Part shown: positions 5,975 to 50,302 of the stretch, piece after piece | Numbering within the stretch: position 1 is the first letter of the stretch | How the letters are laid out: every line of letters starts with the position of its first letter | NCBI GenBank assembly: GCA_024233835.1 | Contig: JACKPC010000001.1 | Span: 1,541,442 to 1,605,441, forward strand | Reading direction: 5' to 3' | DNA: 64,000 bases | Source of the DNA: Leptospiraceae bacterium | GTDB taxonomy: Bacteria > Spirochaetota > Leptospiria > Leptospirales > Leptospiraceae | Program-made: the position numbers and the translations under genes | Notes under the pieces: model-generated | Databases searched by the model: none | What the model was told of the DNA's origin: nothing | The model's input: the letters and a program-made list of their open reading frames with translations, nothing else

Positions 5975-6049
5975 GGGTGAACGACGGGATTTGAACCCGC
6001 GACCACCAGAGCCACAATCTGGTGCTCTACCAACTGAGCTACGCCCACC
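5975..6049 (-). tRNA. tRNA-His (anticodon GTG)
   Basis: Reverse complement folds as a cloverleaf with extra 5' G(-1) pairing to C73, which is typical of tRNA-His. Anticodon loop TTGTGGC, T-loop GGTTCAAATCC. Confidence 0.85.
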
Positions 6050-6058
6050 ATATATCTA

Positions 6059-6132
6059 TGACCCGGAAGGGATTCGAACCCCTGACCATCTGCTTAGAAG
6101 GCAGATGCTCTATCCAGCTGAGCTACCGGGTC
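6059..6132 (-). tRNA. tRNA-Arg (anticodon TCT)
   Basis: Acceptor GACCCGG/CCGGGTC, D-arm GCTCAGCTGGATAGAGC, anticodon loop CTTCTAA, T-loop GGTTCGAATCC. Confidence 0.85.
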
Positions 6133-6139
6133 AAATGGA

Positions 6140-6211
<72 letters not shown>

Positions 6212-6264
6212 CAATCCGTAAATGCTAATATTTTAGACTCTCTTTTTCTGTCAATAGATATTGT

Positions 6265-6513
6265 CTAAAAAGGTTTTCCTTCCTTAAGTAGCTTTTTCTT
6301 AATTCTTAATTCACCATTAATCATTGACTGCAAACCGCTCCCTGAAGAGATGAAGGGAATACTATTGTTATTTTTAAAATGCGTATGATTCTTGCACTCC
6401 GCAAGCAGATGTAGTTCTTTGAGTTCTCCATTGATGAGAGCTTCTTTCGTTCCAGCCCTGTATTTGTTTTTCTCGATAAAAAGCATCACATTCCTCAAAG
6501 TAAACCAGTTCAA
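6265..6513 (-). CDS. hypothetical small protein (82 aa) at island edge
   Basis: ORF only. No recognisable motif. Confidence 0.3.
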   Translation of the reverse strand: MNWFTLRNVMLFIEKNKYRAGTKEALINGELKELHLLAECKNHTHFKNNNSIPFISSGSGLQSMINGELRIKKKLLKEGKPF

Positions 6514-6562
6514 GCGGAAGCCTGGCTTCGGCTCATTTCACTCTCTCAGCCGTCGCAGTTAA

Positions 6563-6964
6563 TCAAGAGAGGAGCCTATCAGTATCTTCCTCAATATCTT
6601 TATTTTCTTCTATCATCCCTTCTAAAATACTGGCGGATGTAGTTGTATTGCGTTCTATTGACTTAACAATTTCTTCCAACTTATTCAGCTTATCTAATAT
6701 ATCTCTCGAATTTCTTTGGCTATCCAATGCTATAGAACAAAGATTAAATACCATGTGATATAAATTCTCAAATAATTCTTCTGTTAGTGATGAGCATTCA
6801 CTATCTTCTAATTCATATTCTAAATAGGAAATTTTATCAATTCTATTTTCAATATCAGCAAGAATAGAAGAATTATAGTATCCTAACTCTCTCATTTCTT
6901 TTACTTGAGAACTCAAGATATTTATTCTTTCCCTGTAATCTATTTCTTCGTAGTAATTATCCAT
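6563..6964 (-). CDS. hypothetical acidic coiled-coil protein (133 aa), downstream of the ATPase/subtilase pair
   Basis: ORF, same strand, about 96 bp after the subtilase stop. AT-rich, like the rest of the island. Confidence 0.4.
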   Translation of the reverse strand: MDNYYEEIDYRERINILSSQVKEMRELGYYNSSILADIENRIDKISYLEYELEDSECSSLTEELFENLYHMVFNLCSIALDSQRNSRDILDKLNKLEEIVKSIERNTTTSASILEGMIEENKDIEEDTDRLLS

Positions 6965-7060
6965 TGTTTGTATTTAAAAAAGTATTTTTAATATACCCCG
7001 CATTCAGTACTATTACAAAATATTTAAACGAGTAGTAATTCAATTTTGTTTAAAACTTTT

Positions 7061-9370
7061 TCAAGTAATATTCTGTATTCTTTCTTGAATTAAATTTGAA
7101 ATTCTATTGTAAAGATCATAATTTAAAGCTTCCTTATCTTTTATGATAATTGATAATACATAATTCTCATATTCATTTGTAATATCTTTTGCCCAAGGAA
7201 AGTCATTTCTTGTAACTACAACATAATATTTAGAGAAATCTTTAAAACTCATAAACGACCAAGTAGAAGATTGAATAGTTCCTTTACCTCTTAATTTTGA
7301 AGAGATATTACGATTATTATTTACTTCTGGAATGTTCTTATATTCATCTTTTGGAGTCGATTTATCAAACATTGTGCTTATTTCTTCTAAATTATTACCT
7401 CTTACTAATTTAAAGAACATTCTAACTGCACGATATTTGACGCGAGTATTTTTAACTGGAGAAAAGTAAGATAAAGTAATTGTAATTTCTCTCTTTCTTT
7501 GTCCTGAGAAAAATTCATCTGGTAAAGGAAGCTCAAAAAAATGGTTTTTATTATTTTCAATACTTTCTATCGCATAAAGAACTATAACATCATTTCCAGA
7601 TTTATATAAAAAATCTTCATTTACTTTTCCATATCCTACCATTTTAATCTTTTTCTCATCTTCAATGCTATCAGAAAAAACTATATTATCATGCTCCGCC
7701 ATTCCTACCAATAAAGCTCTTATTAATAATATATTTTCGATTTGACTTTGTACCAGTAACTTTCCTGCCAAATTAGTAATATATGGTGTAGAAAAACTTG
7801 TTCCACAGTTTTCTGAAAATATTTTTCCATCCAAAAAAGAAGAATTTAGTGATAATTCACCAAGTCCATGTTTGTGAATCAAACTAGTTCTATAATCAAA
7901 TGCTAAATTTCCACCATAAGCTACTAATTCTGGTTTTATACTTTCAGCAATACCGAAACCAATTCGAGAAAAAGGTGAGAGAGAATTTCTTGGTGCAATC
8001 GGTTGGTAAGAAGGATCATTAGGATATTTTATAGAAGATCTCGTTTGATCATATCTTGCGATACTTCCAACTGTAAGGGAATTTATTGAGTTTGAAGGTT
8101 CCAGAATATTATGGCCATTAAAAAAATATTCTGGATAATCATATCCGTTAAGAATTTCATCTTTTATAATGCTGGAGTCAATATTTCCGGTAGATATAAT
8201 AAATAATACTCCAAGTTCATGAGCAAGATTATCTAATATCATAGATAAAGAACTCGGTTTACCTCCTTTATAAGGTCTTTTGGAATCTCCTATCGATAAA
8301 TTAAATATTTTACAATTATATTCATTATGAAGTTCTCTTACTGCAAATTCGATTTGGTTTTCTATAAATTCAGGATGATATGCACTCTCTCGATCCAACA
8401 CCCTTCCACTAATTATCCAAAAATCTGGAATAAAACTATTATTTTCTAAATTAGCAGCAACATCCCCATACAAAGCAATTCCGGCAACAGATGTACCATG
8501 GCCACTTTCATCTTCAGAGGCTAATCCTTTTATATATGACTTTGTATCTCCAATAGAAGGTGATAATAATGGATGTCCTGAAGAAATACCACTATCCAAA
8601 ATAGCAATTCTGGGAGCTTTATCATCTGGAGCAACTGGTTGTGCTATGTTTTCAATATCAAAATTTAATAGAGAATACTTTAGGGTAAAATTTGGAGGTA
8701 CGTCAATAGTACGTACATCTCGATATTTAAATAATTCTTTATAATTAAAATGATTGCATTTGGCACGTAAGATTGTAAGAAATTTTTTAGAAATTTGATC
8801 TAAGATTTGAATATTATTTTTAGAAACAAAATTTTTAAATGCAAAAATCATTTGTTCTCTATGATAATTATTTTCTGTTGGCCATAATTCTATATCTAAC
8901 AAAAAGTCTTCAGTATCGGGTAAGCCTTCTCTTTTTAATACTTCGCCTTTTCTATCTTCTTCTGTCCATAGTTTAAATTCCCTTGATGCTTCAATCAATT
9001 CTTTTCGAGTAACTTTTCCTGTTGAAGCAAAAGTAGATAAACGCTTTTCAAATTCCTCCAAGGCATTTTCAGAAGCAAATAAAAGAACAATTTCATTACT
9101 TTCTTGGCTTACAATTGTTATACCTTCTATTGACTCAAAACCTGTCGGATCAAAACTTTCCATAGTTTTTAATTTTAATAATAGTCTATCATCAAAACCG
9201 GATATTTCTTCTGATTTTCTTATTATCTTAATAAGTTCTAATTCATCTTTTAATTTTTGTGCATGTGCACTTTTATCCCCGGTAAATTTTTTAGGATTAA
9301 AAGGTTTTCCTCTTCGCTCGTTAATTACTGTTTCTCTTTGGAATTGAATATGTTCGTAAATTTCAGGCAT
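7061..9370 (-). CDS. cytoplasmic S8 family subtilisin-like serine peptidase (IetS-like)
   Basis: Catalytic triad motifs in order D (AILDSGIS), H (GHGTSVAGIA), S (GTSFSTPYI). No signal peptide. About 240-aa N-terminal extension. Start overlaps the upstream ATPase stop (TAATG). Confidence 0.8.
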   Translation of the reverse strand: MPEIYEHIQFQRETVINERRGKPFNPKKFTGDKSAHAQKLKDELELIKIIRKSEEISGFDDRLLLKLKTMESFDPTGFESIEGITIVSQESNEIVLLFASENALEEFEKRLSTFASTGKVTRKELIEASREFKLWTEEDRKGEVLKREGLPDTEDFLLDIELWPTENNYHREQMIFAFKNFVSKNNIQILDQISKKFLTILRAKCNHFNYKELFKYRDVRTIDVPPNFTLKYSLLNFDIENIAQPVAPDDKAPRIAILDSGISSGHPLLSPSIGDTKSYIKGLASEDESGHGTSVAGIALYGDVAANLENNSFIPDFWIISGRVLDRESAYHPEFIENQIEFAVRELHNEYNCKIFNLSIGDSKRPYKGGKPSSLSMILDNLAHELGVLFIISTGNIDSSIIKDEILNGYDYPEYFFNGHNILEPSNSINSLTVGSIARYDQTRSSIKYPNDPSYQPIAPRNSLSPFSRIGFGIAESIKPELVAYGGNLAFDYRTSLIHKHGLGELSLNSSFLDGKIFSENCGTSFSTPYITNLAGKLLVQSQIENILLIRALLVGMAEHDNIVFSDSIEDEKKIKMVGYGKVNEDFLYKSGNDVIVLYAIESIENNKNHFFELPLPDEFFSGQRKREITITLSYFSPVKNTRVKYRAVRMFFKLVRGNNLEEISTMFDKSTPKDEYKNIPEVNNNRNISSKLRGKGTIQSSTWSFMSFKDFSKYYVVVTRNDFPWAKDITNEYENYVLSIIIKDKEALNYDLYNRISNLIQERIQNIT

Positions 9371-10365
9371 TATTTGTTTTCTCTTAATATATTTTGTCTT
9401 GATTCTTCTCGTAGATATGAAGTTTCTATATATCTATCTTCCAAAAATTCTTTTCCTTGCATTATCATTTCCTTAATTGCTCTACGAAGAATTCTTTCTA
9501 TATCAGCATGTGATAATCCCTTAAACTTCTGCGATAACTCATTTATATCTGTACGTAAATTTCTTCTGACACCCCTTAGTTTTAATTCAATCAGTTTTTT
9601 TATTTGTTCTTTATTAGGATAGCTGAAATTTAAAACTTCTTCAAATCTTCTCCATACTGCACTATCTAATGTTTTTTCATGATTGGTAGCGGCAATTAAT
9701 ATGCTATTTCCACGATAACTATCTAACATTTGCAATAAAGCATTGACTACTCGCTTTATTTCTCCATGCTCTGAATTATCGGCTCTTTCTCTACCCAGAG
9801 CATCAAATTCATCAAATAGTACTACCATATTTGTTTTATTGATGAAGTCAAAAACCTTTCTAAGATTTGCCGAGGTTTCTCCAAGATAGGATGAAACGAT
9901 TGAGTCTATTCTAATGATTGCCAAAGGTAATTCTAACTCGAATGCTATGACTTCTGCTGAAATTGTCTTGCCACAACCCGGTGGGCCATAAAATAATATT
10001 TTGTCTACCGGTTTCAAACCATGTAGTTTTAAAATCTCTCCTCGATTATGCTCCAATAAAATTTCTTCCATAATTGACTTGTTTTCATCAGAAAGAATAA
10101 TCTCATCTATTGAGCGGGTAGGGGTAATTATATGGATTAATGGTAAACCTTTTTCTTTATCATTCGGAATTTCAAGATTCAATATTTGAAAAGAATTTTT
10201 TTCTGGTTCTTTTCCATATAAAATTCTTTCTAAATCATTTGCTAATAAGTGATGCTTTTTAGCTCTTTCCTCATTGATTATTTCCTCTGCAACCTGTTTG
10301 AATGAGTCTTTATCTCCAGAAGTGCCAAATTGAATCATCTTGCGTAAAAGTTTTGAACTGGCCAT
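9370..10365 (-). CDS. AAA+ ATPase (IetA-like)
   Basis: Walker A GPPGCGKT, Walker B VVLFDEFD, second region of homology, arginine finger region (AATNHEKTLDSAVWRRF). Translationally coupled to the subtilase. Confidence 0.8.
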   Translation of the reverse strand: MASSKLLRKMIQFGTSGDKDSFKQVAEEIINEERAKKHHLLANDLERILYGKEPEKNSFQILNLEIPNDKEKGLPLIHIITPTRSIDEIILSDENKSIMEEILLEHNRGEILKLHGLKPVDKILFYGPPGCGKTISAEVIAFELELPLAIIRIDSIVSSYLGETSANLRKVFDFINKTNMVVLFDEFDALGRERADNSEHGEIKRVVNALLQMLDSYRGNSILIAATNHEKTLDSAVWRRFEEVLNFSYPNKEQIKKLIELKLRGVRRNLRTDINELSQKFKGLSHADIERILRRAIKEMIMQGKEFLEDRYIETSYLREESRQNILRENK

Positions 10366-10425
10366 TGTTATACCTTATCACCTATTATTTATATAGTATG
10401 TTAAAATCATCAAGTAAAAAAAAAC

Positions 10426-13400
10426 TCACAGCCTATCATACTCTTCCAAAACACCCAGCTTTACTTCATCCTTAACCAGTGGGAATGTGCTGAGAATGTA
10501 TTCCAACTCTTCTCTTGTTAGTTTGTAAATCTTTGCAACCATAGCATCAATCTGGTTTTTCAAAGCCTGTCGTTCTTTTTCGACTTTCACACCATGAACC
10601 TCATGAGGCTTCTTACTGCCTTTCCCTTTCAAACCCACTTCTTCCAAAAGCTCGTCAAATTCTTCTGTAGTTCCCACAAGCTTCGCAGCTCTTTCGACTA
10701 ATTTAGAAAAGTAAGGATGGTCTTTATCCGACTGAAACCGCGGAATGGGAAGAGATAATAAGTAAAAAACATTTAATGTAGCTGATACTTTAAGTCTAAT
10801 TGTATAGTCTAAGATATAGCTATTCATTATGGATGAAAAAAATAACTGCTGAGAATTAGAAATGTTAGATTTTTCTATATTAATAGTAGCACAATTTACT
10901 TCTGATAACGATTTTTTAGGAATTATACTCGAAATTAAAGTTCGTTCATTAGTATTTGAAGCTATTCTTCTGTGCCCCCATCTATAATAATTGTAGTTAT
11001 AATGACTGACTTTTTCTAACATTTTATTATCTACCCAAAATTTTGGCTTATCATAATTTGAATCGTATTGCCAAATCATTTTACCTTCAAAAAGTGGAAT
11101 TCCATTTTTATTCTTATTAAATAAATAAGAGTTATTTGTAATATGTGATTCAGAAATAAGTTTCACATTCCATGTTCCTTCGATTTCTTCTCCCAATAGT
11201 GGATACTCTGCATATATTTTTTCTGTAATGTCGGATTCTTTCTTGGAGGAAAACTCCATGAGTGATAATGAATCGGGAGAAAATTTCTTTAGTGTTTCGA
11301 GGTTTACACTAACGTATTTTCCTTTCCTGTTATGTGCTTGCATCATTTCGTTTTCTGTTAGCATCATAAAGGCAGCGGGAACGTCTTTGGTTCCTTCTTT
11401 GGTTTTGATGGTGTTATAAGCAACAAATTTAAATCTACTATCTACATCCTCAAACATCTTCTTTCGATTTTCAAAGCCATATAAGAACTGAACTTTAGAT
11501 TCTGCAAAGAATAACTCTCGTAATTCCTTACAGCCAAGGTCTGTATAAAACCCCGATGGCATTACAATTCCAAGACTTCCTTTTGTTTTTAATAAGTAAA
11601 ACGCTCTTTCTAAGAAAAGTTTGTAGAGGTTTATATCTCCCTTGCCTCTCGCCGGATAGTCTTCACAACTTCTAAAGTATTCCGACACAGAGGAAAGGCC
11701 CATGCTGTATTCCATCCAGAGTTTCTTCAGCTTAGTATCTTTCTTGAGTGTTTCCTCTACTTTTTTCTTGGCCTGAATTTTATCCAATTTACGATAACCA
11801 TCTAAGTGCTTTTCAAAGAACTCCTGTGAATTGGGTTTCCAGGTTTCCCAGGGAGGGTTGAGTAGCATAATATCGAACCCGCCCTTGTTCATGATTTCCG
11901 AAAATTCCATCACCCAGTGAAAAGCATTCAAGTCTTCTGCCTGTATCTTGAATTCCTTAAATTGTTTTATAGCTGAAGTATCTTTCTTCAAGTCTATAAA
12001 ATCAATTTTATTCTTGGGCTTTACTTTCCATACACCTGAAATCTTGGTATTAAAATCCTTATGAAAAAGTTGTTTTAATGCACCTGTTTTCTGGTGAATT
12101 TCATCTCTTTTCTTGAGAGCAGCCTTTGGATTCTCCACTGAAAAGTAAGCCTTTATTAAATCTTCTCTCTCTTCAAAGGACTTTCGAATATCATAAAAAT
12201 CAAATAGTCTTTCGGTCTGTTGTTTCTTAGCTCCCGGAAATAATCCCTGTTGCTCTGCTTTACCCGTATTTTCAAAAGGAGAAGAAGTAAAACCGACAAG
12301 AGAATTCCCGCAGACAACATGAAAATCAATATTCGGAAGCGGTTCTTCTACCTTATCGGTAATACCCTCTATCATTGCAATAAACAGACGAAGTTTGGCA
12401 ATCTCGACTGCTTCCGGAAGAAGGTCTACTCCATAAATATTTTTACTGACTATAAATCTTCGAATTGTATAGATAGATGGAGAAGGGCTATCCATATCCT
12501 TCTTGTATTCTTTTTTCAGTGATTCCAGATTATTCGTCTTAACTACTTCGAGTAAGTTTAAATGTAATTCCGAAAGTTCATGCAAAGCTTCAATCAAGAA
12601 TTGACCGGAACCGCAGGCCGGGTCACATACGGTTATATTCGATAGCTTTTCATAATAAGCAAGGAGGTCTTTTTCAGAAGCCGAAGAAAGAAACTCCGAT
12701 ACTTTTATACACTTTATTTTTAGATTATTCTGAATAAAATATAAAAGAAAATTTTCAATTGTTTCCCTGGAAAGAAAGGAACTCAAGAAAGGTGGAGTAT
12801 AATACACACCCTGAGACTTGTTTTCACCCAGTGATTTTTCAAAAATATAACCTAAAATATAAGGGTCAATTACATCTTCATCGGTATCAGAACGTTCACT
12901 CGAATACCATAACCAGCTTTCTAAAAATGCAAAGATTTCCTGAAAGGCTTTATTGGGAATAGAAATGTCGGGATGTTTTTGTTCCAATTCATGCGTTAAA
13001 AAAAGTCCTCCATTGAGATAAGGAATTAACTCACCGGTTTCTTGAATCCAGGAAGCATCCCTATCTTCCAATTTGACACAGAGTGTTTCTAAGAAAAATC
13101 GTTTTAAAAAATTCTCATAGAAGTTACTTTTCTTGTTCTCATATTCCGCAAGCTTGCGGACCAGATACCTTTCATCTTTTTCTAAAAGATGTTTCTTCTG
13201 GAGAAAATACAGAAAGATAATTCTATCCAATAAGACCTGTGCATATAATCTCTTATCATCCGGATCTGCTACTCCTTGGATTTGTTTTACAAGCTGTAGT
13301 CTTTTTTTGGAATAGTCTGTATAAAATCTTTTGGAAACATCTTTTCTATCGAATAGGTCATCAAAGGTTTCAATCTGCTCGTATTTTAATTTAGAAACCC

Positions 13401-13749
13401 TTTGAATCCCTATTGGGTTTTCTCTATTTCTGATTTCTTCTTTTTTTATTGTATAACGAACAATTTTTGATTTTCCTTCATAACCTATTTTAACAAAAGT
13501 CATAGAAGAAAAATCTTGCGGAACGGCTAAAACACAATAGCGATTATATGTAAAGGAATTGATACGTTTGTTTATTTCAGATTTTTCCTCATAGAAGAAT
13601 ATTTCAATAAATTCGTCTTCTGCAATATTAAAAATGAATGCTCCATCATTTTCTCTGACCTGAAAACCCAAAAAAGAAAAATAGTTATACACATCATCTA
13701 TGGATTGAATTTCTAAAAACTTGCTCTTAAGCTGTTCTACCTTGGACAT
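10426..13749 (-). CDS. large gamma-class N6-adenine DNA methyltransferase, Type IIG R-M / PglX-like (1107 aa)
   Basis: Motif X GVYYTPP, motif I DPACGSGQFL, motif IV NPPW, in that order. Long N-terminal extension with a possible D...E-E-K nuclease-like segment, and a C-terminal TRD-sized region. Confidence 0.75.
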   Translation of the reverse strand: MSKVEQLKSKFLEIQSIDDVYNYFSFLGFQVRENDGAFIFNIAEDEFIEIFFYEEKSEINKRINSFTYNRYCVLAVPQDFSSMTFVKIGYEGKSKIVRYTIKKEEIRNRENPIGIQRVSKLKYEQIETFDDLFDRKDVSKRFYTDYSKKRLQLVKQIQGVADPDDKRLYAQVLLDRIIFLYFLQKKHLLEKDERYLVRKLAEYENKKSNFYENFLKRFFLETLCVKLEDRDASWIQETGELIPYLNGGLFLTHELEQKHPDISIPNKAFQEIFAFLESWLWYSSERSDTDEDVIDPYILGYIFEKSLGENKSQGVYYTPPFLSSFLSRETIENFLLYFIQNNLKIKCIKVSEFLSSASEKDLLAYYEKLSNITVCDPACGSGQFLIEALHELSELHLNLLEVVKTNNLESLKKEYKKDMDSPSPSIYTIRRFIVSKNIYGVDLLPEAVEIAKLRLFIAMIEGITDKVEEPLPNIDFHVVCGNSLVGFTSSPFENTGKAEQQGLFPGAKKQQTERLFDFYDIRKSFEEREDLIKAYFSVENPKAALKKRDEIHQKTGALKQLFHKDFNTKISGVWKVKPKNKIDFIDLKKDTSAIKQFKEFKIQAEDLNAFHWVMEFSEIMNKGGFDIMLLNPPWETWKPNSQEFFEKHLDGYRKLDKIQAKKKVEETLKKDTKLKKLWMEYSMGLSSVSEYFRSCEDYPARGKGDINLYKLFLERAFYLLKTKGSLGIVMPSGFYTDLGCKELRELFFAESKVQFLYGFENRKKMFEDVDSRFKFVAYNTIKTKEGTKDVPAAFMMLTENEMMQAHNRKGKYVSVNLETLKKFSPDSLSLMEFSSKKESDITEKIYAEYPLLGEEIEGTWNVKLISESHITNNSYLFNKNKNGIPLFEGKMIWQYDSNYDKPKFWVDNKMLEKVSHYNYNYYRWGHRRIASNTNERTLISSIIPKKSLSEVNCATINIEKSNISNSQQLFFSSIMNSYILDYTIRLKVSATLNVFYLLSLPIPRFQSDKDHPYFSKLVERAAKLVGTTEEFDELLEEVGLKGKGSKKPHEVHGVKVEKERQALKNQIDAMVAKIYKLTREELEYILSTFPLVKDEVKLGVLEEYDRL

Positions 13750-13796
13750 TACATTACCTCTGGGTTTATGACCATATTTATATATATCTTACGTTT

Positions 13797-13833
13797 ACAC
13801 TTCTATAAACTCTTTGATGCTGAGTTCTTTTCC
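13797..13833. repeat. copy 1 of an ~37-bp repeat corresponding to the 3' coding end of ORF 19048-19509 (…KELSIKEFIE-stop)
   Basis: ACTTCTATAAACTCTTTGATGCTGAGTTCTTTTCC is near-identical to 19050-19086 and 18146-18182. Confidence 0.7.
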
Positions 13834-13836
13834 TAT

Positions 13837-14190
13837 TTATAAAAGAAGAGAGTTTAAGATTTCTTTAATCTGGTTTTCTAAAACTGGAATATCATCTGTT
13901 ATGATATTCCAAACAACCTGATAATCAATACCAAAGTACTCATGAGTTATGATATTTCGAACACCGACAATACTTCTCCAATCAATATTATTGTATTCTA
14001 TTCTCATTTTATCTGAAATTCTTGCAGCTGCTTCTCCGATATCCTGTAAAGCTTTTGCACAAGCATATTTTGTTTTTAAATCATTCAGAAAATCTTGCTT
14101 ACTCAGTCCTTTTACAAATATTTGTATAACTTTAGTATTATCTAAAATATGTTTTAGCCTATCTATATCTGAAAGTTTTTCATTTCTCAT
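13837..14190 (-). CDS. hepT: HepT-like (DUF86/HEPN) toxin
   Basis: Conserved Rx4HxY motif (RNIITHEY). About 117 aa. Overlaps the upstream MntA gene. Confidence 0.8.
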   Translation of the reverse strand: MRNEKLSDIDRLKHILDNTKVIQIFVKGLSKQDFLNDLKTKYACAKALQDIGEAAARISDKMRIEYNNIDWRSIVGVRNIITHEYFGIDYQVVWNIITDDIPVLENQIKEILNSLLL

Positions 14191-14491
14191 ATATTAGAAT
14201 CTTATCCTTTTCTATTCTATTAGCAAAATCAAGTGTTTCATTATGATTGTCGTATAATGCACCGCTGGAAATGACATCTACTTCTATGGGAAACATTTCT
14301 TTAATATCCAAAATCATTCTTGAAAACAAAAGCCCCACTTTTTGCTCAGGTTCTAATTCTAAAAGTATATCCAGATCACTTTCATGATCCATTTCATTTC
14401 TTGCATAAGAACCGAATAAATAAACTTTTTTTATAGGTTTATCTGCTGCATAAGCAAACATTTTCTCTTTTACATCTTCTATAGAAATCAT
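14180..14491 (-). CDS. mntA: MntA-like minimal nucleotidyltransferase antitoxin
   Basis: GSYARNE...DSDLDILL (GS-x-n-DxD) Pol-beta NTase motif. 103 aa. 11-nt overlap with hepT. Confidence 0.8.
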   Translation of the reverse strand: MISIEDVKEKMFAYAADKPIKKVYLFGSYARNEMDHESDLDILLELEPEQKVGLLFSRMILDIKEMFPIEVDVISSGALYDNHNETLDFANRIEKDKILIYEK

Positions 14492-14520
14492 ATATATCTC
14501 TTTTTTATATTCTATCCTTT

Positions 14521-17500
14521 CTATATATAAATACTTAATACTAACTGGCTATGAATTTCCGAACTTTTGTAAAGACTTCCTCTCATACTGGAATCCTCTA
14601 AAATCACTTCATTATAGAATGTAAATAGAGCGGAAGCAAAATCATTAAAAGCGACTTTAGGAACCTGTTTAATGTTAATATTATATTTATTTAAAGTATC
14701 TTTTAATTTATTTGCTTTATCCGAAGAAAGCTGAGTCGTTCCCAGTATTTGCATCATTTCTTTAAAAACAATCTCTGCATCTTCTCGAATTGTTTTAGCA
14801 AACTCAAAAAAGTTCTCTTCCACGAAAAGAGCTTTTTGTTTTTTTAAACCCTGCAAAGTCTGTATAAGTTGAACCTGAATCCCCTTCACGGAACTCACTT
14901 TTTGAGAAACCTTATGAGGATCGGCTTCTTTAAGTCTTTCAATAAAGATTTCTTTAAATGCAAGATTTATCTCTTCTTCTGCCTTTTCCACCCATTCTTT
15001 ATTTTCCACTTCCACACGTGTAAAACCCTCTGACTGAAGATTAGCCTTTTCAAAGAACTCTTCCGGAAAAGCATATTCTACATTTTCATTTCCTTTTTTA
15101 CATAAGAATACACGGGAAAGAAGGTCTCTATTCTGATTCCGTTCTCCATAGATTTCATATAATTTATAGATGGTGTTAGGATTTTTATTGGTAATAGTAT
15201 AATATTCAGCTTTCTTTTTAGGAACACCCTTAAAATCAGAACTCCTGAGATGATTTTCTTTAGCTGCAACGAATAGCTTCGCTCTAAAGAAATCTTCTTC
15301 CGTTTCTCCTTCTATACCGGAAAAAAGAGAATTACTTTTACTGTTTATTTCATATTCACTTACGGAATTGGCATTATAATTCTTTTTAAGTTGTTCACCT
15401 ATAATCTGTGGATTGATCTCTTCTTCATCGGAACTTAAAATAGCCATTTCTTTTCCTAAAAGAGTATTTACCTGGCTTATTTTAGCACTTAAGATTTCGA
15501 GTAACTTTAAAAAACGCTCTAAAATTTTATCAGGTGTAAAATTAAAAACCTTAATTTTATTTTCAGAACCAATACGATTGATTCTACCCACTCTCTGTAC
15601 AATTTTCATTGGATTCCAGGGAAGGTCAAAATTGATAAGTAAATCTGCATCCTGTAAGTTTACACCTTCAGCTAAAACGTCGGTAGAAATTAAGAGATTT
15701 AATTCTTCACTTTCTGTTATATTTTCTACTTTTCTGGCTCTGGGTGCAAACTTATCTAAAACTTTAGATATTCTACCCGAAGTTCTATCATCACCACTTA
15801 CAGTATCAAATAATAAATCGATTTTATTATCTTCACAGGCTTGTTGAATATGATATTTAATATATTCTAAAGTATCCTTATAGGAACAAAAGCAAAGAGC
15901 CTTAATAAAATGAGAACGGTTTAATCTATCTAAGAAAATTTCTATCTTGGGCTCTTTAAGGCTTAGTGGTTCATCAGGTTTTTCTCGTAAAGGTATAATG
16001 TAAGATTCTATAAAATCATTTATTGTTTTTATATCAGTTTCACACCATTTTATAACGGTTTCTTTATCAATTAAATCCTCTTTTCCATCTTTTATATCTT
16101 CTGAATAATCCTCTAATTCCGGTTCTTCCTCTAATTTTTTCTGATTATATTTTTCAATAACTTCATTCCAGTCCTCAGAATCTATTTCGGAGCGAAGAGT
16201 TGTAATTTTTGCTTTGATGTTTTCAAGGGAACAGTAGAAAGAGTAAACACTGGATTCGATTCTTTTGAACAAAAGAAGCTTATACAAATAAGAAAGTGTT
16301 TCCCCATTGGAATTACCGGAAAGGCGTATATGGGGTAAAAATAAACTATCGAGGAATGAGTTTATATTTTCAAATATTGCTTCAAAGCCTCCTGTAAATT
16401 CGTATTCTATTTTATAAACAGTTGGTTCCTGAAACTCTAAAGGTTTACCTCCTACTTTTACATTCTTATATTTTTCTTTTATGGAAGACCTCATCCGAAG
16501 AAGCATCACAGAGTTTAAAATATCAATAATTCTTTTTTTAGCTCGCTCATAATCTGGATTATTTTCTAACTCACGAATACTGATTCCTTTACGAAGATTT
16601 TTAATTAGTTCTGAAAAAACTTGAAAACTGGATGGGTATAGACCTGCATTTGTAAGAGAAGCTTCTACTGTTGAAAGTTTTACCAGGTTTAATAAGTCGC
16701 TTACAGAGTTATTGAAAGGAGTTGCTGTTAATAACAAAACATCTGATCGAGAAGAATAAGGATGCAGTAGACTGATATGCTGATATAGCCTTGTATCTTT
16801 ATTTCTGGCTCTGTGAGCTTCATCTACTACAATTAGGTCAAATTTCTTTTTTCGTAATTTACTTTCTATGGCAGAAGGAAGCATTTGGCTTAACTTCCCC
16901 TGTGAAAGAAAAACTAAATCGGATGAAGCATCTATAGAAAAATATTTTGAAAGAGTTTCTTTCCACTGATGAAGAACAGTAGGAGGGGTTAGTATTAAAA
17001 CTTTTTTTCCTCTTTTATAGTATCTATAAATGACTTCGGAAGCTGTAAATGTTTTTCCGAGTCCTACAGAGTCAGAAACAATGGCTCCTCCAAATCGTTC
17101 TATTTTGTTTAAAATATTCTCAGCACCAATTCGTTGAAACTCAGCTAATTGATCAGTTCCTTGAAGTTCTTCTTCCTCCATCTTTCCAATAAAGTAATAA
17201 ACCATATACACAAGCATCTGAAAAGGAGTAAGGAATATATCTTCCCTTTTTTGAGTATGCTGTTTTTCTCTCAGGATTCCTTTTACAATCTGGAGTAATT
17301 CCGGACGAAAATCTATTCCTTCAGATTCCCATAGCTCATCAAACCATATTTTTAATTCGTTATATACCGGTATATCTGAAGAAGTTAGATTTAGCTCACT
17401 GTTTTCAGTAAGTCCACTTTTCGAAAAATTAGAAGAACCAACAATTGTTCTTACTTGTTCTATATTTCCCGGTAATACTGTTCGAGCAAGATAAAGCTTT

Positions 17501-17907
17501 GCATGAAAAAATCGATTTAACATCAACCGAATATGGATTTTATCATTTTCCAGCAGTTCAATAATTTTGAGTAGCTTTTCCTTTTCTAAACCGGAAACCT
17601 CAGTCTCAATATTTTGAATAATTTCTCTTTTTAATTCTGAATCAGTTTTTGGAATTTTAAATGCTGTTTCCAAAACCTTTGCAGTTGTATAATCCGTTCT
17701 TGGGCTTATCAGGAACTTAATCTGAACATCGTTTTTTTGGAAAAACTCATTATTTTCCAGACTATCCATAACCAGTTCAAATCCACTCAGATAGAAATAT
17801 CCTACGGCAATTCTCATTTCCCTGATATAAGGGAAAATTATGTGATTAATTACCCTATCAAACTGCCTATTTTCATCTCGGTTATCTATGAAAGCTGGAA
17901 ATTGCAT
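14521..17907 (-). CDS. PLD-family nuclease fused to SNF2/SF2 helicase (1128 aa); SauUSI / DISARM-DrmD+DrmC-like architecture
   Basis: N-terminal HxK(x)4D(x)6GSxN phospholipase-D motif (HAKLYLARTV…GSSNFSKSG). Then helicase motif I (GLGKT), DEAH box (IVVDEAHRARN), motif III (LLLTATP) and helicase-C motifs (QRVGRINRIG). Confidence 0.8.
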   Translation of the reverse strand: MQFPAFIDNRDENRQFDRVINHIIFPYIREMRIAVGYFYLSGFELVMDSLENNEFFQKNDVQIKFLISPRTDYTTAKVLETAFKIPKTDSELKREIIQNIETEVSGLEKEKLLKIIELLENDKIHIRLMLNRFFHAKLYLARTVLPGNIEQVRTIVGSSNFSKSGLTENSELNLTSSDIPVYNELKIWFDELWESEGIDFRPELLQIVKGILREKQHTQKREDIFLTPFQMLVYMVYYFIGKMEEEELQGTDQLAEFQRIGAENILNKIERFGGAIVSDSVGLGKTFTASEVIYRYYKRGKKVLILTPPTVLHQWKETLSKYFSIDASSDLVFLSQGKLSQMLPSAIESKLRKKKFDLIVVDEAHRARNKDTRLYQHISLLHPYSSRSDVLLLTATPFNNSVSDLLNLVKLSTVEASLTNAGLYPSSFQVFSELIKNLRKGISIRELENNPDYERAKKRIIDILNSVMLLRMRSSIKEKYKNVKVGGKPLEFQEPTVYKIEYEFTGGFEAIFENINSFLDSLFLPHIRLSGNSNGETLSYLYKLLLFKRIESSVYSFYCSLENIKAKITTLRSEIDSEDWNEVIEKYNQKKLEEEPELEDYSEDIKDGKEDLIDKETVIKWCETDIKTINDFIESYIIPLREKPDEPLSLKEPKIEIFLDRLNRSHFIKALCFCSYKDTLEYIKYHIQQACEDNKIDLLFDTVSGDDRTSGRISKVLDKFAPRARKVENITESEELNLLISTDVLAEGVNLQDADLLINFDLPWNPMKIVQRVGRINRIGSENKIKVFNFTPDKILERFLKLLEILSAKISQVNTLLGKEMAILSSDEEEINPQIIGEQLKKNYNANSVSEYEINSKSNSLFSGIEGETEEDFFRAKLFVAAKENHLRSSDFKGVPKKKAEYYTITNKNPNTIYKLYEIYGERNQNRDLLSRVFLCKKGNENVEYAFPEEFFEKANLQSEGFTRVEVENKEWVEKAEEEINLAFKEIFIERLKEADPHKVSQKVSSVKGIQVQLIQTLQGLKKQKALFVEENFFEFAKTIREDAEIVFKEMMQILGTTQLSSDKANKLKDTLNKYNINIKQVPKVAFNDFASALFTFYNEVILEDSSMRGSLYKSSEIHSQLVLSIYI

Positions 17908-17967
17908 GGTTCGTTCACCTTATACCGAAAGTCGATAGGAATTAAAGTAAAAATCCTTCCCCCTCTA

Positions 17968-18115
17968 ATTTTTCAGAATAATCTACAATTTTAGTTTATG
18001 AATTAAGAAAGACAAGAATTTTACAGTCATAAATGGGAAAAAGTCATGAAATTGGGTTTTAATGCAAACTTCCCACAAACATCCACAGTTTTCGGTTTGT
18101 ATTTCAGTGTTATCG
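17968..18115. repeat. copy A of a ~150-bp repeat homologous to the region upstream of ORF 19048-19509 (19521-19665)
   Basis: Roughly 85% identity over about 150 bp, judged by eye alignment (TTTTTCAGAATAATCTACAA…AAACATCCACAGTTTTCG…). Sits immediately upstream of the PLD-SNF2 gene start. Confidence 0.7.
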
Positions 18116-18145
18116 AGAGAAAGGAAAGCTTTTAACTGGTTTTTA

Positions 18146-18243
18146 TACTTCTATAAATTCTTTGATACTGAGTTCTTTTCCTTTTTTCAGAATAATCTAC
18201 AAATTTAGTTTAGGAATTTAAAAAGACAAGAGTTTCTGTAATG
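18146..18243. repeat. junction: copy 2 of the 37-bp gene-3'-end repeat directly abutting a truncated (~60 bp) copy of the upstream-region repeat
   Basis: TACTTCTATAAATTCTTTGATACTGAGTTCTTTTCC followed by TTTTTTCAGAATAATCTACAAATTTAGTTTAGGAATTTAAAAAGACAAGAGTTT. Confidence 0.7.
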
Positions 18244-18514
18244 GATCTTCTTCTACTTCAATACTTTCTTCATATAATACAGCAGGATCTAAGTCGATGC
18301 AGTTATAAGGATCAAAAGTACCGCTTACATCCCAGGCCAGAGTATTATTCATTACTGTACATTTTTCAAAAAAAAACGACTCATCCTGTAATTTACAAAA
18401 AACTCCCTTATCTATAAGATGACTGATGTCATAGAGTTTAATCTTACCATCATCAAAATATAGGTATACTTTATGATTTTCAGTTGGGAAAACTTGAACT
18501 ATTTTAGGTATCAT
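18218..18514 (-). CDS. DUF2442-family protein
   Basis: 98 aa. Pattern V-x-F-DG…L…FDP…DLDP…LY typical of DUF2442. Adjacent to a DUF4160 gene. Confidence 0.6.
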   Translation of the reverse strand: MIPKIVQVFPTENHKVYLYFDDGKIKLYDISHLIDKGVFCKLQDESFFFEKCTVMNNTLAWDVSGTFDPYNCIDLDPAVLYEESIEVEEDPLQKLLSF

Positions 18515-18593
18515 TAAAATTCTCCAGTATCAAATCGGGTCAATTTTTTTTATTTCTCCATGCTGCATGGCTGATTCCCAGTTTTCTAATAAC

Positions 18594-18776
18594 TCATTCT
18601 GACCAGGCTAAAACTAACTTTAATTGCCTGGAAGGAAGAGCACCCTTTATAATTACAGAGTTATTTATATCAACGATAGCCTGTAAGTCTCCATATTCTG
18701 CATGGAAATGGGGTGGCATGTGATCATTCCAATACATGTATATTTTAATACCAAAAAATTCCGAAACAAGTGGCAT
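18594..18776 (-). CDS. DUF4160-family protein
   Basis: 60 aa. MP…FFGIKIYMYWNDHMPPHFHAEYG matches the DUF4160 hallmark (…H-PPHFH…). Commonly paired with DUF2442. Confidence 0.65.
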   Translation of the reverse strand: MPLVSEFFGIKIYMYWNDHMPPHFHAEYGDLQAIVDINNSVIIKGALPSRQLKLVLAWSE

Positions 18777-18788
18777 ATTCTATCCTTT

Positions 18789-19043
18789 CTATATATAAAA
18801 ACTAAAGACTTCCAGTCTTCCTTTTATCTTTGTTAGAATTACTTCAGCAATATATCTGCACCACCCAACCGCGCGGTTTAAAAGATCGACTTGATGATTG
18901 GCTCGTGTTGAAGAACCATCTGCTTTTAGTGGCTTCCCGCAAATTCCGTACTTATAGATGTCTTTCTTTTCATTATCTATAATTTGATAAAGATGATGTT
19001 CTTCTTCACTATCATGTGAATTACCATGAACTTTTTTTGCCAT
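18789..19043 (-). CDS. hypothetical protein (84 aa)
   Basis: ORF only. Weak GIY-YIG-like YQII…IYKYGI segment, not enough for a call. Confidence 0.35.
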   Translation of the reverse strand: MAKKVHGNSHDSEEEHHLYQIIDNEKKDIYKYGICGKPLKADGSSTRANHQVDLLNRAVGWCRYIAEVILTKIKGRLEVFSFYI

Positions 19044-19047
19044 CTTC

Positions 19048-19509
19048 TTACCTTTCTATAAACTCTTTGATGCTGAGTTCTTTTCCTTTACCCCAGGCTT
19101 CCCTGTTGAAATAGGTTTCATACAATCGTTTGGGAGAATACTCCCAGTCTTCCTTTCCGGTTTTTTGGGTATATGCGTCTTTTGCTACATATAAAAGGTC
19201 TTCGGATGTATCAGCGGGCATTTGTTCCGGGTTTTCGATGACACTGTAATAAAACTTTTTTCCTTTTTCTACAGTTGAGACGCGGGAATATAAGAAACTA
19301 TCAACCGAGAATGAATCTTCTTCTGAATAGCCTACAGCTTTTGCATATTCCGGGCCATCGAGTTTAAAGAGTAAGTCTGTAAGAATTTCCTCAAATGAGT
19401 AAATTTCGGATATAGTTCTTTTGGAAAGATTATCTACCAGAACATCGATATTGAGTGCATTATTTTCTTCAGCTTCCTGTAGTATTTCCCAGAATTGGTT
19501 TTCTTCCAC
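19048..19509 (-). CDS. hypothetical protein (DUF4240-like), probable GTG start with strong SD; resident gene whose ends are repeated across the island
   Basis: ORF. AAGGAG SD 7 nt upstream of GTG 19509. 3' end 19050-19086 and upstream region 19521-19665 are both repeated elsewhere in the island. Confidence 0.5.
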   Translation of the reverse strand: MEENQFWEILQEAEENNALNIDVLVDNLSKRTISEIYSFEEILTDLLFKLDGPEYAKAVGYSEEDSFSVDSFLYSRVSTVEKGKKFYYSVIENPEQMPADTSEDLLYVAKDAYTQKTGKEDWEYSPKRLYETYFNREAWGKGKELSIKEFIER

Positions 19510-19520
19510 TTCCTTACTCC

Positions 19521-19665
19521 TTTTTTCAGAATAATCTACAAATTTAGTTTAGGATTTTAAAAAGACAAGAGTTTTACAGTCATAAATGTGAAAAAATTAT
19601 GAAATAGGGACTTTATACATATTTCGGATAAACATCCACAGTTTTCGTTCCGCATTTCACTGATA
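19521..19665. repeat. copy B (upstream region of ORF 19048-19509) of the ~150-bp repeat
   Basis: Homologous to 17968-18115 and partially to 18183-18243. Confidence 0.7.
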
Positions 19666-19688
19666 TACAACCCCTATATAAGCGATAT

Positions 19689-19804
19689 ACAGTCCATATC
19701 ATAGTAATGAAACAGTCCGTATCATAGTAATAGAACAGTTCGTATTATAGTAATGAAACGGTTCGTATTATAGTAATGAAACGGTCTGTATCATAGTAAT
19801 AATA
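19689..19804. repeat. tandem array, 5 copies of a 23-24-bp unit (consensus ACAGTYCGTATCATAGTAATGAA) plus a degenerate sixth
   Basis: Seen directly: units at 19689-19711, 19712-19735, 19736-19758, 19759-19781, 19782-19804. Confidence 0.8.
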
Positions 19805-19995
19805 CGTCCCTATTTCAGTGATATTCTGTAGTAAGCAGCTCAGTTTATACTTCGATTTTTCTCATCACGAGCACCGGAAGTTAAGAGAAAGTGTTAATAC
19901 GAGTGAGTTTACTGATGTTACCCAAAAAGCGCTTGTTAAGAAAGCTCATTCTATACGAATGAGCGATTTACAGCAGATGATTATGCCAAACTGCA

Positions 19996-38638: not shown

Positions 38639-40041
38639 TGAGAGTTTTTCTTTTTGCAATTATACTTTTTCTTTATACTTCCGCTTCGGCACAGGATTAT
38701 TATAACATTAAAGGTCTATTTGGTGAGAAAGCTCCGGGTATGGGCGGTGCTTTTACCGCTATTTCTGATGATGTGTCAGGCATGTACTATAATCCTGCCG
38801 GCCTTTCTTTCAGTGATAAAAACTATATTTCTATAAATGCCAGTAGTTATAAGATGCAAAATGTCTATCTTAAAGATATGTTCGGTCCTCAACAGGACTA
38901 TGATAGGGCTTCTAAAAATTATTTACCAAATTTTATTGGAATTGTAAAAGCTTACGGGAATTGGAACTTCGGTTTTTCTGTTATTAATTCTGTTTCCGAG
39001 AATTTTGATCAAGCTGACCAGATAAACCTTCCTTTATTCGAGAGGGAAATAACAAGAATCAATGCAACTTTGCGGGAAGAGAATTTTGAAATTTTTGGAG
39101 GTCCGAGCTTATCCTATAAATTCTCGAATAGATTTTCTCTGGGATTCAGTTTTCACTATTTATATTCAAGTTCTTCAAACTTTCTGCATATACAGCAGGA
39201 ATATGAAACGGGAAGCATTTCGCACGTTACTCAACAGGAGAAGAAAAAAGCCTATGCATTTACTCCTATAGTAGGTTTTCAATATATGCTAATAGACAAG
39301 TTGTCTCTAGGTTTATCTTTGAGGCATCAAAAGTATACTACCGGTAATTATAGTAGTCGTAATAGTGTTAATACTTCTATAGGTATGGATAATATACTGA
39401 TAATATCTGAAGGGAATAAAAACTTTACTACAAGTGCAATAAATCAATTTGTGATTTTATCTTCTCCGGAAATTTATGAACTTCCAAATTTAACTACTAT
39501 TCGTTCGGGACTTGCTTATTTCTTTAGTACGAGGTTTCTTTTGTCTTTTGATTTGATTTATACAAGTTCTTTTAAGAAAAATATATTCAGATATGATTAT
39601 TCTGCCGGTTTCTACAGTATTTCTAATACAAATAAAAATGAACTTTATCGAGAAAGCACTTTGAACTATGCTTTGGGTACTGAAATTTTCTTATCTGAAT
39701 TTATTGCTTTTAGAGCCGGCTTTTATACGAATAATTCAAATAATACCAAATTTAGCTGGATACAGGGGGCCTTGAAGATGATCTATGAAGATACAGCCGG
39801 TCTCGATGGAATGCATGTAGATAGTAATATTTTTATTAAAGGGCCTGGTTTAAGGGATGAATATGTAAATTTAAAAGGGTATACTTTCGGTCTTGGTTTT
39901 TATACGGGAGGAAACTCAATATCTATCAGTTATGTAAGAGAAGTCGGTAGGGGCATTTCAGCCATTCCTGTGGGAAAGCTTCCCCAGATAGTAGTTGTTA
40001 ATTATAATTCGTTTTATTTAACCGCTACGAGTAGTTATTAA
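38638..40041 (+). CDS. outer-membrane beta-barrel protein (FadL/TodX-like)
   Basis: Signal peptide. GMGGAFTAISDDVSGMYYNPAGL N-terminal motif and alternating beta-strand pattern to the C-terminal aromatic. Start overlaps the previous stop (TAATG). Confidence 0.55.
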   Translation: MRVFLFAIILFLYTSASAQDYYNIKGLFGEKAPGMGGAFTAISDDVSGMYYNPAGLSFSDKNYISINASSYKMQNVYLKDMFGPQQDYDRASKNYLPNFIGIVKAYGNWNFGFSVINSVSENFDQADQINLPLFEREITRINATLREENFEIFGGPSLSYKFSNRFSLGFSFHYLYSSSSNFLHIQQEYETGSISHVTQQEKKKAYAFTPIVGFQYMLIDKLSLGLSLRHQKYTTGNYSSRNSVNTSIGMDNILIISEGNKNFTTSAINQFVILSSPEIYELPNLTTIRSGLAYFFSTRFLLSFDLIYTSSFKKNIFRYDYSAGFYSISNTNKNELYRESTLNYALGTEIFLSEFIAFRAGFYTNNSNNTKFSWIQGALKMIYEDTAGLDGMHVDSNIFIKGPGLRDEYVNLKGYTFGLGFYTGGNSISISYVREVGRGISAIPVGKLPQIVVVNYNSFYLTATSSY

Positions 40042-40058
40042 TTATAAAAGGAGTATAT

Positions 40059-40616: not shown

Positions 40617-40623
40617 AAGTCTT

Positions 40624-50050: not shown

Positions 50051-50302
50051 TCACTTTTTCTCTAAGTTCCGAAGATGCTGGATGAACTTCTCTTTTTCTT
50101 CTTCAGAAAAATCATTACCGTAATACCTCAGAAAAAGACGGATTTTGATTTCTGTTTTGCTGAGCCCCGGTGGAAAAGAAGCCAATACAATTTTTCTTGC
50201 TGCTGTGCAACTGGCAAACCCCAGCTTCATCCTTTCTTCACCGGTAAGTTTCGCATAACGTTCTCTTAGCATCTGACGTATTTCGGGTGAGGTATCATCC
50301 AT
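50051..50302 (-). CDS. small hypothetical protein (83 aa)
   Basis: ORF. 8-nt overlap with the upstream NTase-like gene. Confidence 0.35.
   Translation of the reverse strand: MDDTSPEIRQMLRERYAKLTGEERMKLGFASCTAARKIVLASFPPGLSKTEIKIRLFLRYYGNDFSEEEKEKFIQHLRNLEKK

Follow-up and report, generated by a model that had tools for sequence, protein, structure and literature searches.

Studies of defense hotspots in Pseudomonas and Escherichia coli have left open the question of how defense islands are built and exchanged without mobility genes, and the same question is raised by a locus of an uncultured spirochete of the family Leptospiraceae. In the stretch of 64,000 nucleotides (nt) analyzed here (contig JACKPC010000001.1, positions 1,541,442 to 1,605,441; hereafter, the window), an AT-rich island lies between a block of core genes comprising a major facilitator superfamily (MFS) transporter gene and xseBA, and a second block formed by a tRNA-Pro/Arg/His cluster and ftsQAZ. 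Its genes are all on the minus strand and code, from the MFS gene towards the tRNAs, for a DUF4240 protein, a Tox-URI2 nuclease toxin, a DUF4160/DUF2442 pair, a PLD (HKD) nuclease fused to an SNF2 helicase (PLD-SNF2), MntA, HepT, an N6-adenine DNA methyltransferase, IetA, IetS, and two short proteins (orf133 and orf82). We consider it probable that this locus is a mosaic defense island devoid of an integrase and remodeled by recombination, the short repeats involved being derived from the ends of its genes and from a promoter-like region. In this scenario, the island would not have been placed by a tRNA-targeting integrase; it would have been built and remodeled via the duplicated segments described below (D1/D3, D4, and D7), by recombination between island variants, either of the RecA type or illegitimate, perhaps with a circular or tandem intermediate. 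Integrase-less defense hotspots are already known; what is new here is the recognition of the repeats as recombination scars, together with a haplotype that differs at one of them (D7).

Internal Repeats and a Probable Second Haplotype

All the significant repeats were internal to the island (E-values from 1e-36 to 2e-7 against the 64-kb window) and fell into four families (Table 1). D1 (145 nt) is present in two copies sharing 83% identity, each of which ends in D3 (about 57 nt, three copies); the latter carries a promoter-like TTGTCT-16-TAAA(A/T)T element (a consensus scan flagged TTGTCT-16-TAAAAT at 18015-17988) and may represent a promoter. D4 (about 40-54 nt, three copies) encodes the last 12 codons of DUF4240 (GKELSIKEFIE-), a C-terminal motif conserved in the three homologues found; thus, the two copies located outside the DUF4240 gene are relics of lost DUF4240 genes. 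One of them is D4c; the other, D4b, is fused directly to D3b, and this arrangement, which we refer to as the empty slot, reads as a DUF4240 copy deleted between the ribosome-binding site and the last 12 codons.

The fourth family, D7 (36 nt, with an exact core of 25 nt), is present in two copies 4268 nt apart and consists of the last seven codons of PLD-SNF2 plus 14 nt. Alignment with 13 homologues places the PLD-SNF2 C-terminus (..LSIYI) at their own C-termini, so that D7b is the native copy. D7a, in turn, has replaced the natural 3' end of the Tox-URI2 gene: the encoded protein ends right after the conserved I.GR motif, lacks about 30 conserved C-terminal residues (homologues are 103-113 residues long), and its tail (EVFSFYI*) is the D7a copy. 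Taken as a whole, the internal repeats are recombination scars: they copy a promoter- or 5' untranslated region (UTR)-like segment and the 3' ends of DUF4240 and PLD-SNF2.

Same-species contigs were retrieved by exact-protein look-up from at least 15 samples; they were 99.4-100% identical to the window. These contigs bridge the region piecewise from the MFS gene to PLD-SNF2 (L009), from PLD-SNF2 to the methyltransferase (L051-L053), and from IetS to tRNA-Pro/Arg (L066-L068), so that the assembly can be regarded as sound. A further contig, L057 (SRR23493597, 984 nt), matches the window from 19087 to 18776 at 100% identity and then from 14542 to 13836 at 99.0%; in other words, Tox-URI2 is joined to MntA-HepT inside D7, exactly at the repeat. 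A strain with this haplotype therefore lacks the block embedding DUF4160, DUF2442, and PLD-SNF2. Beyond the differences within D7, L057 harbors four private single-nucleotide polymorphisms: the junction has one and HepT has three, two of which are non-synonymous. The exact core of D7 is shorter than the k-mer of the Logan assemblies, which we take to be 31; hence, the join should have required real reads rather than arising as a graph artifact, and L057 most likely represents a real second haplotype. As it differs from the window by exactly the D7-to-D7 block, it provides direct evidence of repeat-mediated remodeling.

The join between D7a and DUF4160 in the window looks like what the circularization or the tandem duplication of the variable block would create; none of the contigs that exact-protein look-up could retrieve showed the corresponding circle or tandem joint (PLD-SNF2 3' end to DUF4160). 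Breaks at D7 or D3 occur in several independent assemblies (for D7, L010 and L011 terminate at 18798, and both L061 and L062 begin at 18810); the positions of contig ends were not relied on as evidence of a strain mixture. The repeats did not match any Rfam family. A phage or plasmid origin of the repeat region was also considered and rejected, since neither D3 nor the 23-nt unit of the neighboring tandem array matched any viral contig, and the sole plasmid match was weak and fell in DUF4160/DUF2442 coding sequence.

Table 1. Features of the island and of its borders (positions refer to the window; D, internal repeat families).
Feature	Position	Strand	Evidence and remarks
tRNA-His(GTG), tRNA-Arg(TCT), tRNA-Pro(TGG) cluster	5975-6211	-	ARAGORN; Rfam tRNA matches
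orf82	6265-6513	-	No family; GC 0.36, host-like
orf133	6563-6964	-	Unknown family, sub-threshold matches only; 3' of IetS; GC 0.29; left end of the low-GC segment
IetS, S8 subtilase of IetAS	7061-9370	-	PADLOC IetS 716 bits, full length; Pfam Peptidase_S8
IetA, AAA+ ATPase of IetAS	9370-10365	-	PADLOC IetA 343 bits, full length; Pfam AAA
Eco57I/MmeI-like N6-adenine DNA methyltransferase	10426-13749	-	1107 residues; Pfam Eco57I, MmeI_Mtase; PADLOC type IIG models
D4c	13794-13847	-	Relic of the last 12 DUF4240 codons (GKELSIKEFIEV*), between the HepT stop and the methyltransferase start
HepT	13837-14190	-	Pfam HepT-like, above cut-off; PADLOC PDC-S09 (with MntA)
MntA	14180-14491	-	Pfam NTP_transf_2, above cut-off
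D7b	14507-14542	-	Last seven PLD-SNF2 codons plus 14 nt
Variable block	14507-18774	-	4,268 bp; DUF4160, DUF2442, D3b, D4b, D1c/D3c, PLD-SNF2; present in the window, absent from L057
PLD-SNF2	14521-17907	-	1128 residues; PLD (HKD) nuclease fused to SNF2 helicase; Pfam PLDc_2, SNF2-rel_dom, Helicase_C
D1c + D3c	17965-18113	-	D1c, 17969-18113, with D3c at its end; promoter/5'UTR-like, 58 nt upstream of PLD-SNF2
Empty slot (D3b-D4b)	18142-18235	-	D3b (18179-18235) fused directly to D4b (18142-18195)
DUF2442 antitoxin-like partner of DUF4160	18218-18514	-	Pfam DUF2442; intact
DhiT-like DUF4160 toxin gene	18530-18776	-	1-nt frameshift near 18596; called ORF 18594-18776, 60 residues
D7a	18775-18810	-	3' end of Tox-URI2
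Tox-URI2 nuclease toxin, truncated	18789-19043	-	Pfam Tox-URI2, profile 1-69/86
DUF4240 protein	19048-19509	-	Pfam DUF4240; 3' end is D4a (19047-19100); host-like GC
D1a + D3a	19518-19666	-	D1a, 19522-19666; D3a, 19518-19574; promoter-like element and AAGGAG ribosome-binding site upstream of DUF4240
Tandem array	19689-19800	.	4.9 copies of the 23-nt unit ACAGTCCGTATCATAGTAATGAA; Tandem Repeats Finder score 154
Terminator-like hairpin	19944-19964	-	Just past the MFS stop codon; right-hand core boundary

Defense and Toxin-Antitoxin Genes

Protein families were assigned with Pfam, PADLOC, and NCBIfam models. Every island protein with a recognizable family is predicted to be a defense or toxin-antitoxin (TA) component; the first-pass annotation, which had listed only such functions, holds in this respect, except that its list missed Tox-URI2 and DUF4240 and that orf82 and orf133 do not belong to any family. 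According to these assignments, IetAS, PLD-SNF2 with the methyltransferase, MntA/HepT, and two decayed toxin modules are gathered within 13 kb, as expected for a defense island. Three modules are apparently intact, namely IetAS, PLD-SNF2 plus the MmeI-like N6-adenine methyltransferase, and MntA/HepT; the decayed ones are the frameshifted DhiT/DUF2442 pair and the truncated Tox-URI2 beside DUF4240.

The ietA and ietS genes overlap by 1 nt. IetAS matches the PADLOC models at full length, but IetA scores 265 bits against the NCBIfam equivalog (IteA), under its curated cut-off; this suggests that the system belongs to a divergent subtype. The mntA and hepT genes overlap by 11 nt and their NCBIfam equivalog scores are likewise below the cut-off; the adjacency of an MntA nucleotidyltransferase and a HepT HEPN RNase identifies them as a putative type VII TA system. 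Both members of the DUF4160/DUF2442 pair indicated by the first-pass annotation are present, but the toxin gene is frameshifted: the called open reading frame (ORF) covers residues 1-61 of the 84 of the NCBIfam DhiT model, and the model is covered entirely (1-84/84) once the +1 frame is joined. The frameshifted sequence is identical in independent assemblies, and an intact type II DhiTA system is, on this reading, not predicted here.

DUF4240 is probably the immunity or antitoxin partner of Tox-URI2. In another organism (locus L049, about 700-860), the gene for a DUF4240 homologue (62% identity) precedes a Tox-URI2 remnant truncated at its 5' end, recognized in our own translation, and then an HNH_2 gene. 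The occurrence of DUF4240 with a degraded Tox-URI2 remnant is in favor of an immunity-toxin pair with a decaying toxin, DUF4240 seemingly being the immunity-like partner that persists longer than the nuclease. D1/D3 is not conserved upstream of the homologue in L049.

The PLD-SNF2/Methyltransferase Pair

The PLD-SNF2 protein is the likely restriction effector. It matched the PADLOC models "HKD+Snf2" (244 bits) and DrmD, and its matches in the PDB are SNF2 remodelers and RapA; weak matches were obtained with the NCBIfam model "phospholipD_antiphage" (165 bits, against a cut-off of 1100) and with PADLOC PLD_Helicase. As for the methyltransferase, its MTase and C-terminal regions fit type IIG models, residues 132-340 fit the N-terminal part of one such model, and the PDB match to MmeI is marginal (E = 0.004).

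The closest homologues of PLD-SNF2 are 42-46% identical and belong mostly to Leptospiraceae, with a patchy distribution of the family among Leptospira species. In Leptospira santarosai (L072, CP027843) and in a metagenome-assembled genome of a wastewater Leptospiraceae (L073), a methyltransferase homologue is located directly downstream of PLD-SNF2, the two genes being separated by 6 nt in the former and overlapping by 16 nt in the latter. The methyltransferase of the window aligns with these homologues from residue 1 (44% identity over residues 1-949 with L072; 36% and 32%, in two segments, with L073). Furthermore, homologues of the two proteins are encoded by neighboring genes on haloarchaeal plasmids. 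Hence, the canonical unit is PLD-SNF2 followed by the methyltransferase. In the window, the two genes are separated by about 770 nt harboring MntA, HepT, and the D4c relic; the operon is split by MntA/HepT, inserted between PLD-SNF2 and its partner methyltransferase. In the MmeI-like single-chain enzymes of type IIG/IIL, an N-terminal PD-(D/E)xK nuclease is fused to a gamma-class N6-adenine methyltransferase and a target-recognition domain; the conservation of the PLD-SNF2 partner suggests that the nuclease is supplied in trans.

The pair can be compared with two multigene systems. MANTIS (Gao_RL/Gao_29) consists of the AAA+ protein MtsA, MtsB, the methyltransferase MtsC, and MtsD, a PLD-SF2 helicase nuclease (bioRxiv 10.64898/2026.09.23.753747), and shares with the island an N6-adenine methyltransferase paired with a PLD (HKD)-helicase effector, the likely logic being in both cases self-marking by methylation coupled to an ATP-dependent PLD nuclease. 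Neither MtsA (ORC/Cdc6-clade AAA+, DUF499) nor MtsB (DUF3870) is present in the island, so that the four components are not all found; moreover, the adjacent AAA+ protein is a genuine IetA accompanied by IetS, the methyltransferase resembles MmeI/Eco57I, the helicase is a true SNF2, and the canonical unit comprises two genes. Class 1 DISARM (DrmD SNF2, DrmMI, DrmA, DrmB, and DrmC PLD) also combines SNF2, PLD, and N6-adenine methyltransferase domains, all found in the island. Here, however, PLD and SNF2 are fused in one protein, the matches to the PADLOC/NCBIfam DrmD and DrmMI models are partial, with all the scores far below the curated cut-offs, and neither DrmA (DUF1998 helicase) nor DrmB (DUF499-like) was found in the island or among the immediate L072/L073 neighbors. 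By analogy with MANTIS and DISARM, the pair would most likely mark self DNA by adenine methylation and restrict unmethylated DNA with an ATP-driven PLD nuclease. As a secondary reading, the two-gene unit of Leptospiraceae and haloarchaeal plasmids might be an uncharacterized minimal relative of MANTIS/DISARM, and we flag the conserved pair as a candidate two-gene restriction system.

The neighborhood of the pair is rich in defense genes both in L. santarosai (CP027843, 1-8665), with JetABCD/Wadjet-like genes, Fic, and N6_Mtase, and on a Halobaculum plasmid (L047), with TIR-domain and DUF262 proteins. Within the methyltransferase coding sequence of the window, an inverted D3-like sequence is found at 12708-12738 (codons 338-347; 26 matches out of 31, with a 14-nt exact core, TAGATTATTCTGAA), close to where the N-terminal region gives way to the methyltransferase domain; its chance expectation is about 1e-3 (a rough estimate), and it may be either a relic or a coincidence.

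Base Composition and Boundaries of the Island

The GC content of the interval 6212-19943 is 0.321 versus 0.376 for the rest of the window (0.365 for the window as a whole), and the 1-kb GC bins inside the island differ from those outside it (Mann-Whitney, p = 3.9e-6). The sliding GC profile has a trough of 0.27-0.35 at about 6.5-19 kb, with flanks at 0.38-0.44, and the lowest-GC 13.6-kb stretch of the window begins at 6201. These data confirm the AT-rich interval that had been reported at 6230-19812, with two caveats: the maximal low-GC segment (6593-18855) is narrower, and a second stretch of the window, discussed below, nearly matches it. Analysis of the GC content at third codon positions (GC3) gave values of 0.145 for IetS, 0.18 for HepT, 0.21 for MntA, 0.23 for IetA, 0.235 for PLD-SNF2, and 0.24 for orf133, well under those of all the other genes of the window (0.30-0.43 for most flanking genes). 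Composition thus sets apart only a part of the island, the methyltransferase, DUF4240, Tox-URI2, and orf82 being host-like; we infer that the AT-rich part was acquired horizontally. The difference in GC3 between PLD-SNF2 and the methyltransferase (0.319) suggests separate histories for the two genes.

On the left side, tRNA-Pro has its 5' end (6211) towards the island, in agreement with the first-pass annotation, and the distance between the 3' end of the tRNA cluster and ftsQ is only about 170 nt. A promoter-like TTGACA-16-AATATT element is found at 6254-6227, and orf82 is probably outside the compositional island. The 49-nt spacer between orf133 and orf82 (6514-6562) has a GC content of 0.57 and sits exactly where the low-GC segment ends on the left; neither a tRNA nor an Rfam family was matched by it, and its fold was not significant. 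On the right side, the tandem array of 23-nt units is located between the MFS terminator and the promoter-like D1a/D3a element. Its units are partly palindromic, it folds as DNA with a z-score of -3.8, and its copy number is equal in five assemblies. The unit was not found in other loci. The array looks iteron- or operator-like, and no Rep or regulator gene lies nearby.

The nearest sequenced relatives are of limited help in delimiting the island, the next-best XseA among 5.8 billion proteins being 60% identical; at this distance, synteny is limited to the ftsQAZ and AI2E-xseAB-MFS blocks. Scanning GTDB with FtsA retrieved seven loci (FtsA identity of 69-84%) sharing only ftsQAZ, without the tRNAs or the MFS gene, and the homologues of the MFS protein in a scan of JGI metagenomes were at most 56% identical, with no synteny. 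One relative (L045) keeps AI2E-xseA-xseB-MFS followed by unrelated genes, and another (L046) does not have the MFS gene. The divergence of L045 after the MFS gene fits a boundary right after it, at the hairpin (19964-19944), and proves nothing about the island itself.

Origin and Remodeling of the Island

The position of the island beside three tRNA genes calls to mind an integrase-bearing element that entered at the tRNA cluster and was later stripped of its integrase and att sites. Landing at tRNA and tmRNA loci is common (PMC10250203, PMC10121019); tRNA adjacency, deviating GC content, and accessory cargo are features that the island shares with tRNA-targeted islands, and several of its genes are pseudogenized, so that decay does occur here. 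However, the island lies on the wrong, 5' side of tRNA-Pro, the cluster 3' end being close to ftsQ. No match of at least 14 nt to the tRNA cluster was found elsewhere in the window (only chance 11-13-mers), and no direct repeat of at least 10 nt is common to the island edges; in particular, the tRNA 3' fragments that we were advised to look for at 19700-19900 are not there, this interval being occupied by the 23-nt array instead. No recombinase, integrase, or transposase family was matched by any island ORF on either strand, antisense and small ORFs included, and no integrase fragment turned up in any frame, nor did gene calls on overlapping public contigs reveal a recombinase within about 10 kb on either side. 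Finally, the repeats that account for the internal structure come from genes of the island and not from tRNAs. We consider such a decayed element very unlikely, and the first-pass annotation was right in finding no integrase and in setting aside a classical tRNA-targeted integration.

The internal structure itself might instead recall an array of site-specific cassettes, similar to integrons or to clusters of attC sites lacking integron-integrases (CALIN), with D3, D4, and D7 acting as the sites of a recombinase encoded elsewhere. All the genes are co-oriented, among them small TA-type ones, conserved junction sequences recur between gene blocks with no integrase nearby, strains differ in the presence of one block flanked by direct repeats, the join between D7a and DUF4160 resembles a circle joint, and the cargo is rich in TA genes, as is typical of sedentary chromosomal integrons. 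The attC sites of integrons, imperfect palindromes located at the 3' end of each cassette, on the other hand, are strongly structured, whereas D1/D3 and the empty slot fold as single-stranded DNA no better than shuffled sequences (z = +0.3 to +1.1). The junctions are recognizable coding 3' ends and a 5'UTR-like segment rather than dedicated sites; the repeats were not found in the rest of the window, in viral contigs, or in other loci. The blocks, of 3.4 kb and larger, with payloads including 3.3-kb genes, far exceed typical cassettes, and neither intI nor any other recombinase is encoded in the 64 kb, apart from a partial IS200-like ORF located 29 kb away. A cassette array of this type thus appears highly improbable. 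The turnover by homologous or site-specific recombination at internal repeats that had been suggested initially is borne out by the L057 join in D7 as far as the repeats are concerned; the site-specific route finds no support, there being neither an attC-like fold nor a recombinase.

We also considered a more speculative version of exchange, in which D3 plus the 40-nt DUF4240 3' end would form reusable slots and, together with D7, serve as docking sequences. Three such slots can be delineated, one with DUF4240, one empty, and one with PLD-SNF2-MntA-HepT; cassettes would be exchanged independently of any integrase or by a recombinase acting in trans, and the 4.27-kb block would be excised and re-inserted as a circle. 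If true, the platform would represent a new kind of device for shuffling defense genes, distinct from integrons; we regard this as quite improbable.

A different possibility is that the region has long been resident and vertically inherited, its AT-richness being gene-specific and its repeats representing old local duplications, with no ongoing exchange. Several of our data point in this direction and weigh against a remodeled mosaic. The left junction recurs in the three independent contigs reaching the tRNAs, at 99.4-100% identity, and the arrangement of the window (PLD-SNF2-D7b-MntA) is found in eight of the nine MntA contigs, so that the island may be nearly fixed. The GC contrast is modest: a stretch at 36-42 kb with housekeeping-like genes is nearly equally AT-rich (GC content of 0.31-0.35), and the composition of the methyltransferase (GC3 of 0.32) and of DUF4240 (0.35) is that of the host. 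Moreover, the nearest homologues of both PLD-SNF2 and the methyltransferase are found in other Leptospiraceae, which does not support the acquisition from a distant donor; it rather implies that part of the island circulates within the family and did not come from afar. The nearest XseA relative is too distant to show the locus empty or differently filled, the variant joining Tox-URI2 to MntA rests on a single 984-nt contig and fits a deletion or a Campbell-type insertion alike, and the defense activity of the island is predicted from sequence. In spite of this, a resident region would leave the very low GC3 of six island genes, the difference in GC3 between PLD-SNF2 and the methyltransferase, the patchy occurrence of PLD-SNF2 among Leptospira species, the unrelated genes found after MFS in relatives that keep AI2E-xseAB-MFS, and a segregating 4.3-kb structural variant to be accounted for, and it seems to us rather unlikely.

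The mosaic island remodeled at its own repeats, which we favor, can be set beside the core-genome defense hotspots devoid of integrases, such as cDHS1 (next to tRNA-Pro) and cDHS2 (at tmRNA) of Pseudomonas aeruginosa and hotspot #37 of E. coli (PMC10250203, PMC10121019). For core hotspots, exchange by homologous recombination has been proposed, and mobility genes are often undetectable (PMC10250203; PMC10121019); in hotspot #37, 68% of the occupants have no detectable mobile element (PMC10121019). In the same way, the island embeds several unrelated defense systems between conserved core genes and adjoins a tRNA gene. It differs in being known from one species-level population, diversity of occupancy being the defining property of a hotspot, in facing the 5' end of the tRNA, and in the gene-end and promoter-like repeats that document recombination within the island. 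The locus therefore offers a concrete case, at the sequence level and in an uncultured spirochete, of junctions that truncate toxins, split an operon, and bound a 4.3-kb variable block. It does not overturn current views and will not surprise specialists; its value is that of a documented case.

Other Features of the Window

The second AT-rich stretch (36092-42035) encodes a 7TMR-DISM/SpoIIE phosphatase, a FadL-like outer-membrane protein, an ABC ATPase, and UPF0014. Being AT-rich and housekeeping-like at the same time, it implies that low GC content is not specific to foreign DNA in this genome and that GC content alone is a weak argument. The partial IS200-like ORF mentioned above (48687-49388) contains part of a Y1 transposase domain (residues 172-224), no other transposase-like sequence having been seen in the window, and embeds 9.9 copies of an 18-nt tandem repeat (GCAATGAATCCCCACGGG) at 48929-49106. 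The ORF at 50295-50837, with a GC content of 0.287 and a weak match to AbiEii toxin-like nucleotidyltransferases, may be a second small defense or TA locus.

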